From IMG/VR virus record IMGVR_UViG_3300042468_000162, positions 1-57,370 of that record: 57,370 bases of DNA. The stretch is one strand, 5' to 3'. Source of the stretch: a virus. Lineage: Duplodnaviria > Caudoviricetes. How positions within the stretch are numbered: the stretch's first letter is position 1; every line of letters begins with the position of its first letter. Below the pieces are notes generated by a model that saw only the letters and a list, made by a program, of their open reading frames with translations, searched no databases and was not told the DNA's origin. The translations under genes and the position numbers were made by a program. Below, piece by piece: positions 6,106-11,305 of this stretch.

Positions 6106-6329
6106 TGAAACAACTCAAGTTATTCGATGAGATTGAAGATCTAGAAGATAGCACTGCCTATGCAGATGTTAGCTTTGTGGTTACATTCGATAAGAAAGAA
6201 ATGCCAACTGTATACACAGATATACTGTACCTTGAAGATGAGATTAAGGATGCAATCATCAATGCCATGCATGACATAGGTGCTACAAAGACTGACGATA
6301 TCATCATTAATATTGAGGGCTTAGAATGA
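6105..6329 (+). CDS. Hypothetical acidic protein
   Basis: Translationally coupled at both ends. Confidence 0.7.
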   Translation: MKQLKLFDEIEDLEDSTAYADVSFVVTFDKKEMPTVYTDILYLEDEIKDAIINAMHDIGATKTDDIIINIEGLE

Positions 6330-7693
6330 AAGAATCATTAATGGACTATCACGGTATACAGATTGATATCTCCCGTGATTGGTTACTGTCAGAGCAAGCT
6401 ACGCAGTTACTACAAGACTACTACATGCTCCCCGGTGAGAGGAGTCCACAAGAAGCATATGCTCGTGCTGCGTTAGCTTACTGTGGTCACAACAAACCAT
6501 TTGCACAGCGTATCTATGACTATGCATCTAAGGGTTGGTTCATGTTTGCCAGCCCCGTACTTAGTAATGCACCACGTGTAGGTGAGTACTTTAAGGCTTT
6601 ACCTATCTCATGTTTTCTTACATACATAGGTGATAACCTGACTTCCCTTGTAGATCACAATGCAGAAGTTGCATGGCTATCAGTAAAAGGTGGAGGTGTA
6701 GGTGGGCATTGGTCAGATGTACGTGGTGTCAGTGATAAAGCACCAGGACCTATACCTTTTATGAAAGTTGTAGATAGTCAGATGACTGCATACAAACAAG
6801 GCAAGACACGGAAAGGTAGCTATGCTGCGTACTTGGATATTAGTCACCCTGACATTGTTGAGTTTATTAATTTTAAAGTACCCACTGGTGGTGACATCAA
6901 TAGAAAATGCTTCAATCTATTTAACGCAGTCAATGTCACTGACAAGTTTATGGAAGCAGTAGAGAAGGATCTTGAGTGGCACTTGATTGATCCTGCTAAT
7001 AAAGATGTACGTGGAACAATAAAAGCTAGGGATCTATGGCAACGTATCCTTGAAGCTAGATTTCGTACTGGCAGTCCCTATATCAACTTCATTGACGAAG
7101 CTAACAGGCAGCTTAATCCACAGCAGAAAGCATTAGGTTTAAAGGTACACGGTAGCAATCTATGCAACGAAATACACTTAGCTACAAGTGAAGATCGTAC
7201 TGCAGTATGTTGTCTATCTTCTGTGAACTTAGAGAAGTTTGATGAGTGGGTAGATACAGATATGGTCTATGACCTAACTGTTTTCTTAGACAATGTATTG
7301 CAAGCCTTTATCGATAATGCACCACGTGAGATCCATAAAGCTATCCGTAGTGCAGAGGCAGAGAGATCGTTAGGCTTAGGTGCTATGGGTTTCCATGGTT
7401 ATCTACAAAGCAAAGGTATCCCATTTGAAGGGCTGTCAGCTAAGATTGCAAACATTAGAATGTTCAAACATATCCAAGAGCAAGCAATTAAAGCTACAAA
7501 GTCTATGGCAATTACAAGGGGTAACTGCTTAGACGCAGACGAAGTATTAGAGGTAAAAACAACAGATGGCAATTTTATTTTAAGTAAGAATCACACAGTT
7601 CTTGCAAAAAGAAAAGAGCAAGATATAACTTTGCTAGTTAAAGACTTGCAAGAAGGAGATGAAATTGTTAATTTGCAAAGTGTGCAGTATTGA
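6326..7693 (+). CDS. nrdA: Class Ia ribonucleotide reductase alpha subunit, N-terminal fragment with a foreign C-terminal tail
   Basis: ISCF, GGGVG, HPDI, NLCNEI (thiyl Cys), VCCLSS, LGLGAMG; lacks the YY pair and C-terminal CxxC; no ATP cone. Confidence 0.95.
   Translation: MKESLMDYHGIQIDISRDWLLSEQATQLLQDYYMLPGERSPQEAYARAALAYCGHNKPFAQRIYDYASKGWFMFASPVLSNAPRVGEYFKALPISCFLTYIGDNLTSLVDHNAEVAWLSVKGGGVGGHWSDVRGVSDKAPGPIPFMKVVDSQMTAYKQGKTRKGSYAAYLDISHPDIVEFINFKVPTGGDINRKCFNLFNAVNVTDKFMEAVEKDLEWHLIDPANKDVRGTIKARDLWQRILEARFRTGSPYINFIDEANRQLNPQQKALGLKVHGSNLCNEIHLATSEDRTAVCCLSSVNLEKFDEWVDTDMVYDLTVFLDNVLQAFIDNAPREIHKAIRSAEAERSLGLGAMGFHGYLQSKGIPFEGLSAKIANIRMFKHIQEQAIKATKSMAITRGNCLDADEVLEVKTTDGNFILSKNHTVLAKRKEQDITLLVKDLQEGDEIVNLQSVQY
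7526..7693 (+). other. Intein/Hint-like N-segment fused to the NrdA N-fragment
   Basis: CLDADEVLEVKTTDG..LSKNHTVL..VKDLQEGDEIV resembles the intein N3/N4 pattern (TxxH; LxxGD). Confidence 0.6.
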
Positions 7694-8027
7694 AAAACAA
7701 TATATAGATTTTCCCATAGCTAGTGTTACTAAAACAGGGAGGGCCGGAGAATGTAAAGAATGCAAGTCAGCTCGCACAAAAAAACTTAGGTCGGAAAGAG
7801 AAACGCTGCTATATGAGATGCTTTTAAAGCAGTGTAATATATGTAAAATGACACACAAGACACCTTCGTTTTTTGACTTTCATCACGTTGATAAAAAAGA
7901 TAAACATAGAGAAGTAAAACAAATACTATGTGGAGCCATTTCAACACTTTTGAGTGAAGTTAAAAAATGTGTGATGTTATGCCCTAATTGCCACAGAGAA
8001 ACCCACATAAAAGAAGGATGGAAATGA
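7659..8027 (+). mobile_element. Free-standing HNH homing endonuclease gene inserted in nrdA
   Basis: CxxC pairs, DFHH, LCPNCHRETH; AT-rich; separates the two nrdA fragments. Confidence 0.9.
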
Positions 8028-8590
8028 AAGTCTTAAGCGTTGAAAAAGTGTTGACAAGAAATATGCATTTAATCGCAGTGGCACCCAATGCTAATAGTAG
8101 TATTATTTGTGGTTGCTCTGCTTCCATTGAGCCTATTAAGTCTAACGCATATGTGCATAGAACTCGTGCAGGATCGCATCTGGTCAAGAACGTCTACCTA
8201 CAAAAGATCCTATATTCCATGGGCAAGGATACGCAAGAGGTATGGCAATCGATCATCATGAACGAAGGCTCAATACAGCATTTAGACTTTATAGATAAAA
8301 CAACTAAAGATATCTACAAGACTGCTTTTGAGATTGACCAGACATGGGTCATTGAACATGCAGCAGATAGACAACAGTTCATATGCCAGGGACAGTCTCT
8401 GAATCTATTCTTCCCTGCAGGTAGCCCCAAGTCTTATGTTAATGCAGTACACTTACGAGCTTGGAAATCTAAACTCAAAGGCTTATACTATCTACGTACT
8501 AGCGCAGGTGTACAAGCTGATAAGATCGGTTTAAAGATCGAAAGGAATGCATTGCAAGATGCTGAAGAATGTCTTAGCTGTCATGGGTAA
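8024..8590 (+). CDS. nrdA: Class Ia ribonucleotide reductase alpha subunit, C-terminal fragment
   Basis: RNxHLIAVAPNANSS, SIEP, QGQSLN, GLYYLR, terminal CLSCHG; RBS AAGAAGGA and ATGA overlap with the HNH stop. Confidence 0.93.
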   Translation: MKVLSVEKVLTRNMHLIAVAPNANSSIICGCSASIEPIKSNAYVHRTRAGSHLVKNVYLQKILYSMGKDTQEVWQSIIMNEGSIQHLDFIDKTTKDIYKTAFEIDQTWVIEHAADRQQFICQGQSLNLFFPAGSPKSYVNAVHLRAWKSKLKGLYYLRTSAGVQADKIGLKIERNALQDAEECLSCHG

Positions 8591-9038
8591 ATCTTCTGAA
8601 GGTGGTAGTAAACGAAAACGATTCAGTAAAAGTTTGCATAGTGAGAATGATACACCCGCAAGGGCTGCAGCTATGCGGTACTGGAAAGCTTTAGGTTACA
8701 ATGTCTACGAGAACACTAACAATCATATACCTGATTTAACTATAGAGACAGAAAATGCAAGATTCTACAGTGAAGTTGAGGTTAAAAGGATATGGAAGGG
8801 AGAGGATTTTCAGTACGATACCCTACAAATACCTGAAAGGAAGCGAAAGTATACAGGACTTGATCTTCCGTGTACTTTCATGGTATTTAACAACGAACAG
8901 ACTCTCGTATTTCTCTGTGAGAGCAGCACACTTGTTACTTCCCCCATAGTAGAAGTGCCTAATAAGTTCGTACCTGAAGGGGAACTATTCTTTCAAGTCC
9001 CCATTAAACGTGTTAAATTAGCGAGGGTTCCAGTGTAA
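8583..9038 (+). CDS. Hypothetical protein, possible PD-(D/E)xK nuclease
   Basis: PDL...EVEVK motif; start at ATG 8583. Confidence 0.55.
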   Translation: MGKSSEGGSKRKRFSKSLHSENDTPARAAAMRYWKALGYNVYENTNNHIPDLTIETENARFYSEVEVKRIWKGEDFQYDTLQIPERKRKYTGLDLPCTFMVFNNEQTLVFLCESSTLVTSPIVEVPNKFVPEGELFFQVPIKRVKLARVPV

Positions 9039-9421
9039 TGAATAAAGATGCTATCATTAACCAGCTTGAAAGGATCTATGCTAACCTAGTGGCACTAGGA
9101 ACTTATTATTTCCATGAGCATTGTGAATACAATAGTAACTATGCAGCTACTGGAGATATTGATACTGTAGAATTTGGATTGTGGGATGCAGAATTACGGA
9201 TTAAAGAAGTTATTCAATTGTTAGAAGAGTCATATGGAGCAAGCAATGGATTCAGAGATGCCAGAGATTTTAATGACACGGAATCTTGGGAAACATCCAA
9301 GTGGACTTACGATGCAGGAATGGCTATGGCCTTTCAAGACTGCGGAACAGAGAAAGCTAGTAGCAAAGTATCACAAGAAGATTCAGAAGCAGCAGCGCAA
9401 GAAGCAATTAGACGATATTGA
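9038..9421 (+). CDS. Hypothetical protein
   Basis: TAATG-coupled start; 3' half overlaps the 9234-9437 ORF. Confidence 0.55.
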   Translation: MNKDAIINQLERIYANLVALGTYYFHEHCEYNSNYAATGDIDTVEFGLWDAELRIKEVIQLLEESYGASNGFRDARDFNDTESWETSKWTYDAGMAMAFQDCGTEKASSKVSQEDSEAAAQEAIRRY

Positions 9422-9437
9422 ACTTGCACCCTTTTAA
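9234..9437 (+). CDS. Hypothetical small basic protein
   Basis: Protein-like composition; stop lies just before the next RBS. Confidence 0.5.
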   Translation: MEQAMDSEMPEILMTRNLGKHPSGLTMQEWLWPFKTAEQRKLVAKYHKKIQKQQRKKQLDDIELAPF

Positions 9438-9454
9438 CTTAATAGGAGAAAACT

Positions 9455-9766
9455 ATGACTTACATTAAAGTAGACGATGAGATGGCAGATAAAATCTTAC
9501 GTGATGGATTAGTTGAAAGCTACTTCACAACGGAAGATATGATTGAAGCTGCCGAAACAAAGGAAGAAGCAGGTGAAAAACTTAAACCCTATCAGCAAGA
9601 AGACCTTGAGTACAATAGAAAATACCTTAAAGCACTCAAAAGAGTTATCGAACACTTTAGCGTCGGAGGAAACTTTAATGTCGAGGCTGAAAGACTTGAC
9701 TACTATGAAAGAAGTTATGACTCACCAGCCTACGTGCATGTCAAAGAAGACGAAGATGAAAACTAA
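9455..9766 (+). CDS. Hypothetical acidic protein
   Basis: Strong AGGAG RBS. Confidence 0.8.
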   Translation: MTYIKVDDEMADKILRDGLVESYFTTEDMIEAAETKEEAGEKLKPYQQEDLEYNRKYLKALKRVIEHFSVGGNFNVEAERLDYYERSYDSPAYVHVKEDEDEN

Positions 9767-10269: not shown

Positions 10270-10296
10270 GGGCACTTTCATAGTGCCCTTTATTTT
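10270..10296 (+). terminator. Intrinsic terminator-like hairpin
   Basis: GGGCACT-ttcat-AGTGCCC followed by TTTATTTT. Confidence 0.65.
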
Positions 10297-10318
10297 CCCC
10301 TTTAACTTTGGAGTATCC

Positions 10319-11305
10319 ATGTCTGTAACAGCACCAAATACAACGTACAAACCCTTCACTTACCCATGGGCTATGGAGTATGCAGTTGAATCTGAAAAAG
10401 CTCACTGGGGGGAATGGGAAGCTAAGTTACAAGATGATGTAGCACAGTGGCAGAATGGCAAGTTGTCTGCCCAAGAAAAAAATCACATCACTCAAATCCT
10501 ACGATTGTTTACGCAGAGTGATGTAGCTGTAGGTACAAATTACTTAGAGCACTATGTACACAAATTTAAGAACAATGAAATCAGAGCTATGCTTACTAGC
10601 TTTGCTAATAGGGAGTTTGTTCATCAGCGTAGCTATGCCCTATTAAACGACACACTTGGATTACCAGAGGAAGAGTACTCAGCCTTCCTAGCATACAAGC
10701 AAATGCGTGATAAGATCGATTTCATGACACGAATAGATACCCATAGCCATGAAGGATTAGCGAAGGCTGTAGCTCGTTCTGTGATGAATGAGGGCATGTC
10801 TTTGTTTAGTGCCTTTGCCATGCTCTTAAATTATCAGAGATACGGTAAGATGAAGGGTATGTGTGAGATTGTTGAGTGGTCTATCCGTGATGAATCCATG
10901 CACTGTGAAGGTATGGTTAAACTGTTCAGGGAATTCTGTAAAGAGCATCCTCGTATTGTCACAGATGAATTTAAGAAAGATATCTATCAAATGTTCAGAG
11001 ATGGTGTAGCACTTGAGGATGCAGTCATTGATGGTGCATTTGAAATGGGTGGCATACAGGGCTTGACAGCAGATGATGTAAAAGGGTATATTCGCTACAT
11101 AGCAGATAGACGTTTAATTCAGCTAGGACTTAAGGGTAACTGGGGAGTTAAAACTAATCCGCTAGAGTGGCTTGATTGGATTGTTTCGGGTGACACACTG
11201 AAGAACTTCTTTGAGGGTGTAGTAACCGATTACAATGCAGCTGGTATGGTAGGTGATTGGGGATGGAAACACAATGAACCAGAGAAACACAAACTTGCAG
11301 CGTAA
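10319..11305 (+). CDS. nrdB: Class Ia ribonucleotide reductase beta subunit
   Basis: W...E, SDVAV, EFVHQRSY (Tyr radical), NEGMSLF, DESMH, NFFE; GGAG RBS before ATG 10319. Confidence 0.96.
   Translation: MSVTAPNTTYKPFTYPWAMEYAVESEKAHWGEWEAKLQDDVAQWQNGKLSAQEKNHITQILRLFTQSDVAVGTNYLEHYVHKFKNNEIRAMLTSFANREFVHQRSYALLNDTLGLPEEEYSAFLAYKQMRDKIDFMTRIDTHSHEGLAKAVARSVMNEGMSLFSAFAMLLNYQRYGKMKGMCEIVEWSIRDESMHCEGMVKLFREFCKEHPRIVTDEFKKDIYQMFRDGVALEDAVIDGAFEMGGIQGLTADDVKGYIRYIADRRLIQLGLKGNWGVKTNPLEWLDWIVSGDTLKNFFEGVVTDYNAAGMVGDWGWKHNEPEKHKLAA

Follow-up and report, generated by a model that had tools for sequence, protein, structure and literature searches.

The gene nrdA, which encodes the large subunit of class I ribonucleotide reductase (RNR), is found in two pieces in the phage record IMGVR_UViG_3300042468_000162 of IMG/VR, a complete 57,370-bp record with terminal repeats that was analysed at full length and is called the window here. 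An HNH homing endonuclease gene lies between the two pieces, nrdA-N and nrdA-C, and at the break the two proteins carry a foreign C-terminal tail and a foreign N-terminal head, respectively, which may descend from a split intein. Near-identical DNA was not found among GenBank phages. The sequences that a first-pass annotation of this DNA had quoted from the two proteins were found exactly at the positions it gave, and the features of the locus are as follows.

6326-7693, plus strand: nrdA-N, 455 aa, the N-terminal two-thirds of the class I RNR large subunit plus a tail
7414-7528, plus strand: upstream co-conversion tract, about 115 nt, holding all 23 mismatches to the empty-site allele (L006) within 6500-7528
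7526-7543, plus strand: native NrdA loop residues C401-E406 (CLDADE), where relatives carry GSCPDAQE or GECPDA
7544-7690, plus strand: N-tail, V407-Y455, with five predicted beta strands and a net charge of about -3
7599-7654, plus strand: candidate regulatory hairpin with 9-bp arms at 7599-7607 (TTCTTGCAA) and 7646-7654 (TTGCAAGAA)
7655-7667, plus strand: HNH translation start region, with GGAG at 7655-7658, ATG at 7659 and TTG at 7665, where the tail frame reads G-D-E-I-V
7659-8027, plus strand: free-standing HNH homing endonuclease gene, 122 aa from the ATG or 120 aa from TTG 7665, in a frame that differs from that of the nrdA halves
8018-8590 (alternative start 8024), plus strand: nrdA-C, 188-190 aa, the C-terminal third of the RNR large subunit
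8024-8056, plus strand: basic N-terminal head MKVLSVEKVLT (11 aa) of NrdA-C, followed by native RN at 8057-8062
8057-8086, plus strand: downstream co-conversion tract, 30 nt with 13 mismatches to L006, then 0 up to 9716

Each of the two proteins retains a recognisable part of the enzyme. In NrdA-N, matches to the Pfam families PF02867 (E 5.5e-73) and PF00317 (E 2.9e-11) place the RNR all-alpha and barrel domains at residues 21-401, with Ribonuc_red_lgC covering residues 95-401 (profile positions 2-336). NrdA-C matches PF02867 (E 1.6e-38), its residues 11-157 corresponding to profile positions 378-523. The last ~54 residues of NrdA-N and the first 10 of NrdA-C fall outside the Pfam RNR model. 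The C-terminal end of NrdA-N reads ...TRGNCLDADEVLEVKTTDGNFILSKNHTVLAKRKEQDITLLVKDLQEGDEIVNLQSVQY up to the stop codon, with the codon of Cys401 at 7526-7528, and NrdA-C begins MKVLSVEKVLTRNM from 8024, or MEMKV... from 8018. The motifs SNLCNEI, AVCCLSS, APNANSS, GLYYLRT and CLSCHG were read in the two halves, and the barrel and all-alpha domains and catalytic motifs of a class I RNR large subunit are present across the two together. From these motifs and the E. coli numbering, we take NrdA-N to hold the equivalents of Cys225, Asn437/Cys439/Glu441 and Cys462, with the APNANSS loop, the tyrosines of GLYYLRT and the C-terminal CLSCHG assigned to NrdA-C. The two halves share one frame around an insert of 510 nt (170 codons), and nrdB lies downstream at 10283-11305.

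To separate native from foreign residues, the break was compared with 69 loop sequences of uninterrupted NrdA from the fetched loci, which give the consensus ...RG-E-x-P-D-x-x-G-x-G-x-RN-x-HL.... Some uninterrupted relatives have Cys and DA at the same places, such as Vp_R1 (RGSCPDAQEVGEVARN) and L084 (KGECPDAKGYGVRN). RGNCLDAD(E) and RN are thus native NrdA residues, and Cys401 is not the Cys1 of an intein. The caution in the first-pass annotation that RGxCxDA and RN look native is confirmed by these sequences, and a reading of CLDADE as intein block A, with the stretch from A to B deleted, is refuted, since CLDADE is native loop and the remnant begins immediately ahead of block B. Foreign sequence comprises V407-Y455 of NrdA-N (7544-7690) and M1-T11 of NrdA-C (8024-8056). 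The insertion replaced about five native residues of a variable surface loop, ~10 codons upstream of the conserved APNANSS strand. Over the tail, the coding frame is open for 48 codons (P ~0.008 from base composition), and the other two frames hold 4-5 stops both in the window and in the diverged locus L086.

The same cassette occupies the same site in the diverged nrdA of L086, L097 and L098, with an HNH protein 67% identical to that of the window, a tail ending ...CPDADEFLYIDTDTETLLVNKSQKVLAKRAGKDITLLVNQLQEGDEIVNLYHM and a head MEMIVKGIRNVLK directly before RN. A third type of tail was found in fragment P0001, and basic heads were found on the C-fragments P0034 (MKVLSIKKLLK before RN), P0035 (MEMKVRKIKEHLK before RN) and P0037 (MEMKVKSINR before RRN). 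The search for C-fragments returned 25 proteins, seven of which were read; four start with a head and three are internal-Met calls of uninterrupted genes, while the other 18, with sequences unread, have a query coverage of 68-70% that fits the uninterrupted kind. The heads are basic in all five types and the N-tails acidic in all three. In the first half of the diverged tails, hydrophobic positions are kept through replacement across the three types (V/F/L, V/I/V, F/L/L, L/V/L). A homologue search with tail residues 401-455 among proteins of 250-797 aa gave 39 candidates and none at E ≤ 10, missing the L086 type as well, so that proteins of this sort may be absent from the collection searched. 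A profile of two tails (A3), searched against 1.84 billion representatives, gave seven matches at E ≤ 0.001. Besides the relative P0001, two of these (P0002, P0006) proved on inspection to be long repetitive proteins and were rejected, and the uninspected P0003-P0005 and P0007 are also long, with multiple matched stretches.

The HNH open reading frame (ORF), which the first-pass annotation of the tails left unnamed, matches PHROG 2255 'HNH endonuclease' (phrog_2255) with E 5.3e-23. In tblastn it was matched by 328 phage records, and among those listed many bear the annotation HNH endonuclease. Its relatives at 33-47% identity are free-standing. The stop codon overlaps the start of nrdA-C (ATGGAAATGA). 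At the other end, ATG 7659 directly abuts GGAG without a spacer, and because L086 has ACG in place of this ATG, TTG 7665, 6 nt past GGAG, is the start common to the window and L086. The family match, the empty site and the co-converted flanks identify a homing endonuclease whose cleavage activity is putative. Genes of the same family (38-44% identical) were also observed just downstream of nrdA in L051, L064 and L088, in L088 (1110-4231) between nrdA and an nrdB identified by eye. These genes are intergenic, however, and their nrdA is uninterrupted and without tails; their position mirrors that of mobE in T-even phages as described by Crona et al. (PMC3045599).

Comparison of alleles indicates how the cassette arrived. 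Relatives are encoded by 80 IMG/VR loci, of which only L005 (97% identical) has both tail and HNH gene, and in the other IMG/VR loci with both nrdA cores present the cores lie 12-30 nt apart. One locus, L006, is an empty-site allele with 0 mismatches to the window over 6500-7413 and 8087-9716, so that the differences are confined to the two tracts listed above. This pattern reads as the signature of endonuclease-driven homing, in which flanking exon was co-converted from a diverged donor. A second patch that diverges from L006 was noticed at the 5' end of nrdA, with 24 mismatches in ~160 nt (6340-6499) followed by 914 identical bases; the mismatches continue upstream to ~6070, which looks like another recombination boundary.

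Both alleles were recovered from the environment. In DNA run X2, from lake water, one contig covers 7339-8116 without any difference, and a second has a variant flank, jumps from 7522 to 8087 and carries the variants of the empty-site allele. Interrupted and empty alleles therefore coexist in one lake metagenome sample, and because X2 is a DNA run, the joined form is an uninterrupted gene and not a splicing product. All or most of window positions 7000-8600 were found in 17 lake-water, freshwater and subsurface metagenome runs (X1-X17) from ~15 studies of 2017-2025, one of which may be the source sample; contigs were compared for X2, X7 and X10. In runs X9-X17, 0.52-0.60 of the sampled words were found, a share that would fit the empty-site allele, yet X10, the run among them whose contigs were compared, carries the cassette. 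RNA run X18 gave only contigs 90-95% alike over conserved parts of nrdA (7296-7478 and 8395-8571). Judged by these comparisons, the whole cassette is a recent mobile insertion.

The first-pass annotation had described the tails as lacking the catalytic residues of splicing, and this is borne out. Cys1 and block A are absent, Cys401 and LDAD(E) being native. The Thr-x-x-His of block B, which the annotation believed it saw in the tail, reads S-K-N-H in the window, and its His is Q in L086 and K in P0001, so that the motif is not conserved. Blocks F and G, an intein-derived terminal Asn and a +1 Cys/Ser/Thr are also absent; Met follows the native RN (Asn13), in contrast to the true C-intein P0010, which ends ...ILTHN before C. 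Canonical protein splicing is thus excluded on the residues present, and since every splicing element is missing, the NrdA halves would stay separate polypeptides. Rejoining by other routes, namely non-canonical trans-splicing, RNA splicing of a group I intron with an HNH ORF, or translational bypass, would suit the common frame of the two halves around an insert of 170 codons, and HNH-bearing group I introns are described as common in phage nrd genes (PMC3653736). Yet the in-frame path has stops, the Rfam search of 7200-8400 gave no family at E ≤ 1, and the parts of the insert outside the ORF (~112 nt upstream and ~30 nt downstream of it) are all that is available for an intron core. The only joined form comes from a DNA run with the variants of the empty-site allele, and the missing blocks A, F and G and +1 nucleophile, the Met after Asn13 and the native Cys401 and RN also speak against it. 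Rejoining by any of these routes is thus considered exceedingly improbable. Taken together, the anatomy of the locus, its mobility and the absence of splicing are regarded as nearly certain.

The closest known arrangement is the Aeh1 RNR encoded by nrdA-a/mobE/nrdA-b, which Friedrich and colleagues are said to have presented in 2007 as 'genes in pieces'. As in Aeh1, the class Ia nrdA of the window is split by a free-standing HNH gene that overlaps the start of the downstream half, the active-site and radical-path residues are divided between two polypeptides, both halves carry non-native and oppositely charged tails, and a hairpin is proposed near the ribosome-binding site of the endonuclease. 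The insertion site differs. According to the description by Crona et al. (PMC3045599), Aeh1 is split between the equivalents of Cys439 and Cys462, whereas the break here lies ~110 residues past the equivalent of Cys462. The N-side tail is basic in Aeh1 and acidic here, as in most split inteins. The cassette of the window, unlike Aeh1 as described, is demonstrably spreading among nrdA alleles at one site, and the function of the split enzyme is putative here. Crona et al. showed that the Aeh1 tails are essential and named a degenerate split intein as one of two speculated origins (PMC3045599).

The second comparison is with the fractured genes reported by Dassa et al. in 2009 (PMC2677866), which share the order of an N-half with an intein-like end, an endonuclease gene and a C-half with an intein-like start. 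The window likewise has two halves around a free-standing endonuclease. In the fractured genes as described, the inteins are complete, with Cys1 and HN followed by C, S or T, and are predicted to trans-splice, whereas the window has only 48 + 11 residues, no catalytic residue and no complete split-intein halves. The endonucleases reported there are GIY-YIG or Vsr-like, and here HNH; the NrdA insertion reported there lies directly N-terminal to the thiyl-radical Cys (PMC2677866). The first-pass placement of the locus between split-intein fractured genes and the Aeh1 type holds. Its proposal that the system was undescribed does not hold wholly, as Crona et al. had shown essential tails and proposed a split-intein remnant (PMC3045599). 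By word searches of open-access papers, which are not proof of absence, a natural splicing-dead split-intein tail was found described only by Crona et al. in 2011. New here are an Aeh1-like architecture at a different site, tails apparently traceable to a split intein, and an actively homing cassette.

Support for an intein origin of the N-tail comes from a metagenome scan with an alignment of the three tails, which found L099, an 88.9-kb contig with a fractured clamp-loader gene. BLASTP aligned window residues D405-Q451 with residues 165-212 of its protein P0008 at 22 of 48 identical positions (46%; pairwise E 2e-9), a segment that runs from the strand before block B through the end of the Hint part. 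P0008 carries a true N-intein that starts CLEENE... after an N-extein ending ...LLDE and matches Pfam Intein_splicing over residues 130-213 (E 9.8e-13). Next in the locus comes an ORF of 414 aa in which zinc fingers accompany a TnsA-like endonuclease N-terminal domain (Pfam E 4.4e-7). The 38-aa C-intein, MKRVKIKHIRSVGTKNVRNLTVTNNHNFLTKNGILTHN followed by CDR..., has an HN end before C. L099 is thus a live example of a fractured gene, and the window tail lines up with the final part of N-inteins of this kind. Between the window and P0008, the codons of the shared KDLQEGDEIV differ at 5 synonymous sites, and the match therefore reflects similarity of proteins, not DNA transferred recently. The clamp-loader gene (gp44/RFC-like) lies at L099:2509-5140, on a contig shared with L100, with an N-intein of 119 aa; at least 23 further proteins carry this N-intein family, most of them also with clamp-loader (AAA/Rad17) domains.

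Using hhalign, the three tails were aligned with 24 N-inteins (P0008 and the 23) at a probability of 89.6% and a score of 34.6, a score reached by 0 of 200 shuffles (10.1 +/- 2.0). V407 falls at residue ~57 of the N-intein family. When the DLQEGDEIV segment is left out, the score falls to 14.2 (shuffles 9.1 +/- 1.9, of which 2 of 200 reach it) and the register is unchanged. Independently of L099, AlphaFold2 (AF2) models show five strands for the tail alone and within NrdA-N, where the tail has a predicted local distance difference test (pLDDT) value of 60-73. The top eight Foldseek matches are inteins (best probability 0.96, query TM-score TMq 0.57, E 0.49), as are, with Hint entries, 34 of the 36 entries listed by VIA-align (Z 2.4-4.6), in which the aligned ranges start at chain residues 33-101 (305 for the two hedgehog entries, in their own numbering) and never at residue 1. 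The nearest named clusters in the ESM Atlas, likewise independent of L099, are Intein_splicing, Hint_2 and PT-HINT, with scores of 0.79-0.90 that are leads only. The tail would cover only ~48 of roughly 130 or more Hint residues, and it resembles the C-terminal half of a split N-intein, from a degenerate block B region through the last strand. Similarity of this kind is not described for the Aeh1 tails in the text of PMC3045599. The Hint likeness claimed in the first-pass annotation therefore stands for the part from block B onward, by BLASTP, hhalign and weak fold matches, and finds no support in the Pfam Hint models. With the evidence concordant but individually weak or pre-selected, the N-tail is probably of intein origin.

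A full-length ancestor at this site was not met in the intein-family scan of IMG/VR, which gave 19 loci. The nine inspected, which leave aside L101-L107, hold complete split or contiguous inteins in terminase, helicase-like or other genes; none of them lies in nrdA, and a donor locus was not found among them. Terminase-like and helicase-like phage genes with such inteins were observed in L108, L110-L115 and L118, where ORFs of several kinds (HNH-like, methyltransferase-like and zinc-finger) separate the intein halves; L114 carries as a contiguous mini-intein what is a split intein in L111, L113 and L115.

The 10-11-residue head of NrdA-C resembles the first strand of a C-intein and is too short for statistics. 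KVRKIKEHL (P0035) and IVKGIRNV (L086) can be set beside VKIKHIRSV of L099. A regular expression for C-inteins in the fetched loci returned only L099, L111 and L115-L117, the flanks of the others being too short.

The tail DNA also carries signals for the next gene. The tail codons EGDEIV contain the HNH Shine-Dalgarno sequence and start codon, so that the LxxGD segment noted in the first-pass annotation has EGD codons that double as the Shine-Dalgarno, and the 3' arm of the candidate hairpin abuts GGAG at 7655-7658. The window and L086 share three near-invariant nucleotide blocks, AGTTCTTGCAAAAAG at 7597-7611 and TTGCAAGAAGGAGAYGAAATTGTTAAYTTG from 7646, which each hold a stem arm, and AAGATATAACTTTGCTAGT at 7620-7638, which contains TATAAC at 7624-7629. 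Hairpin and promoter-like block occupy the codons for VLAKR...DITLLV...LQE and are candidate regulatory signals for the HNH gene. The hairpin shows no covariation, as its arms are invariant in both cassette types, and folds no better than shuffles (z -1.23, not significant); the TTGCAA-16-TATAAC pair is missing from the output of the sigma-70 scan, which accepts only T as the last base. The layout recalls the hairpin and late promoter of mobE (PMC3045599; PMC2677866), and hairpins and promoter-like elements upstream of the endonuclease start are also reported for fractured genes (PMC2677866). The same DNA thus appears to serve both tail coding and endonuclease signals.

To assess how the two proteins might meet, the complex of the NrdA halves was predicted with ESMFold2, which gave an interface score (ipSAE) of 0.94 against 0.47 for the best control; 58 of 80 solved complexes attained the ipSAE mark, as did 2 of 110 mismatched pairs. 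The runs, for which we supplied our own alignments, agree in at least 86% of contacts, with a partner pLDDT of at least 82. Such a pass is expected for halves of a family with solved structures and indicates likeness, not binding. Among the predicted interface residues are N residues 403-415, 418, 427, 438-439 and 441-447 and C residues 1-22, a list that would suit a placement of the last tail strands next to the head. Acidic N-side and basic C-side polarity has been described for the 'capture' step of split-intein assembly (PMC11766414, citing Shah 2013). The kept hydrophobic positions and the pairing of acidic tails with basic heads argue weakly for a role of the tails as protein. For a docking role of the tails, the chances are evenly poised. 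The full statement, that a mobile HNH cassette split nrdA and that its splicing-dead intein stubs still pair, is marginally favoured, and the more specific idea that a homing cassette carries a natural half-Hint docking pair, portable and splicing-dead, is entertained tentatively.

Several results weigh against this statement. On the side of intein origin, the scan that found L099 demanded the word LQEGDE, so that the similarity is partly pre-selected, and without this segment p is ~0.01. Of five AF2 models of the tail alone, one has a pLDDT of 71.7 and the others 48-52, and the structural matches are weak, with no Foldseek match at E ≤ 0.001 and all Z below 5. Pfam hmmscan of the tail gave nothing at E ≤ 1, and a six-frame search of the window with PF14890, PF13403 and PF07591 (Intein_splicing, Hint_2, PT-HINT) gave none at E ≤ 10. 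The tail found no PHROG or PDB sequence family, its PDB matches being coiled-coil noise (E 0.3-0.8), and tblastn of the tail against phage genomes gave a single match, with E 9. The head, as said, is beyond statistical test. On the side of function, protein-level constraint on the tail is weak or confounded, its second half being conserved at the nucleotide level in a way that fits endonuclease regulatory signals; the Aeh1 tails are described as dispensable for heterodimer formation, so that a clasp is not required (PMC3045599); and the insertion appears so recent that a working split enzyme does not follow from it.

These functional points lead to the alternative that the tails are passengers without a role in the enzyme, kept in frame by endonuclease signals or by translation up to the HNH start, and that the NrdA halves would assemble through nothing but their large native interface. 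In the comparison of the window with L086, proportions of synonymous differences (pS) are saturated in nrdA and HNH (0.77-0.85) and only 0.46 in the tail. The first 18 tail codons have pS 0.74 and a nonsynonymous proportion (pN) of 0.53 (pN/pS ~0.7), and the next 21 have pS 0.32 and pN 0.15. GGAG, the start codon and the invariant hairpin arms lie in tail codons. Because of these overlapping nucleotide signals, the conservation of VLAKR...DITLLV...LQEGDEIV is not readable as protein selection alone. The ~390-400 predicted contacts are nearly all native RNR contacts, and the dispensability of the Aeh1 tails for heterodimer assembly (PMC3045599) suits passengers as well. Against it stand the hydrophobic positions kept in the first half of diverged tails, the acidic N-tails and basic heads in all types, the tail and head residues in the predicted interface, and the finding that the Aeh1 tails are essential for activity (PMC3045599). 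On balance, mere passengers are rather unlikely.

It could also be argued that the split nrdA is a dead gene, inactivated by the insertion in a phage that uses the host RNR or other genes. Outside the tracts the window is 100% identical to the empty-site allele; the insertion is thus very recent, and decay would not yet show. However, at least five head types and three tail types, all diverged, have the same split with intact frames, and the halves differ from L086 mostly synonymously (pN 0.14-0.19, pS ~0.8). The cassette itself provides NrdA-N with a stop codon in frame and NrdA-C with a start codon overlapping the stop of the HNH gene, the nrdB gene follows, and the split Aeh1 enzyme is described as fully active (PMC3045599). 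A dead gene is accordingly very improbable.

Returning to the favoured statement, an origin can be proposed. In a single illegitimate copying event, a segment of a fractured gene comprising the 3' end of an N-intein gene, the endonuclease gene and the 5' end of a C-intein gene would have moved into the surface loop of nrdA, turning one gene into two. The retained pieces are exactly those that adjoin the endonuclease gene, and one such event could suffice; for an intein to decay in situ, two in-frame deletions would have had to occur separately where it joins the exteins, in a loop without a +1 nucleophile. The cassette would thereby carry the endonuclease-proximal stubs of a split intein, a ~48-residue N-intein end fused in frame after ...DADE of NrdA-N and a ~10-residue C-intein start fused before RN of NrdA-C. 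The reductase would be rebuilt non-covalently from two polypeptides. Acidic tail and basic head would pair as the last strand of the N-intein (IntN) with the first strand of the C-intein (IntC) do in the 'capture' step, and this contact would promote assembly or dimerisation in the manner of the presumably unrelated tails on Aeh1 NrdA-a and NrdA-b. For Aeh1, Crona et al. had put forward an event of this kind (PMC3045599).

The locus may thus provide sequence evidence for one of the two guesses of Crona et al. on tail origin, with a comparison set at hand that consists of the empty-site allele, diverged cassette copies and intact split inteins of a related family. If the stubs pair, a selfish endonuclease would make its own insertion harmless without splicing chemistry. 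A cassette with non-covalent glue could then fracture an essential gene in a loop without Cys/Ser/Thr, which would open new insertion sites to endonuclease genes, and the locus would be a missing link between split-intein fractured genes and Aeh1-type tailed fragments. For engineers, the stubs would be a minimal natural protein-pairing tag (~48 + 11 aa). If they do not pair, the locus would still offer a natural case of an essential enzyme tolerating backbone scission in a loop, and of a reading frame that also houses the regulatory region for the gene after it.

Next to the split gene, an ORF of 163 aa (window 8547-9038) overlaps the end of nrdA-C and is kept beside nrdA-C in L086 (3847-4362) and L096. 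It has no Pfam match at E ≤ 1 and only weak PHROG matches. A PD...E-V-K-like motif (PDLTIET...SEVEVKR) was seen by eye, and the product could be a PD-(D/E)xK nuclease.

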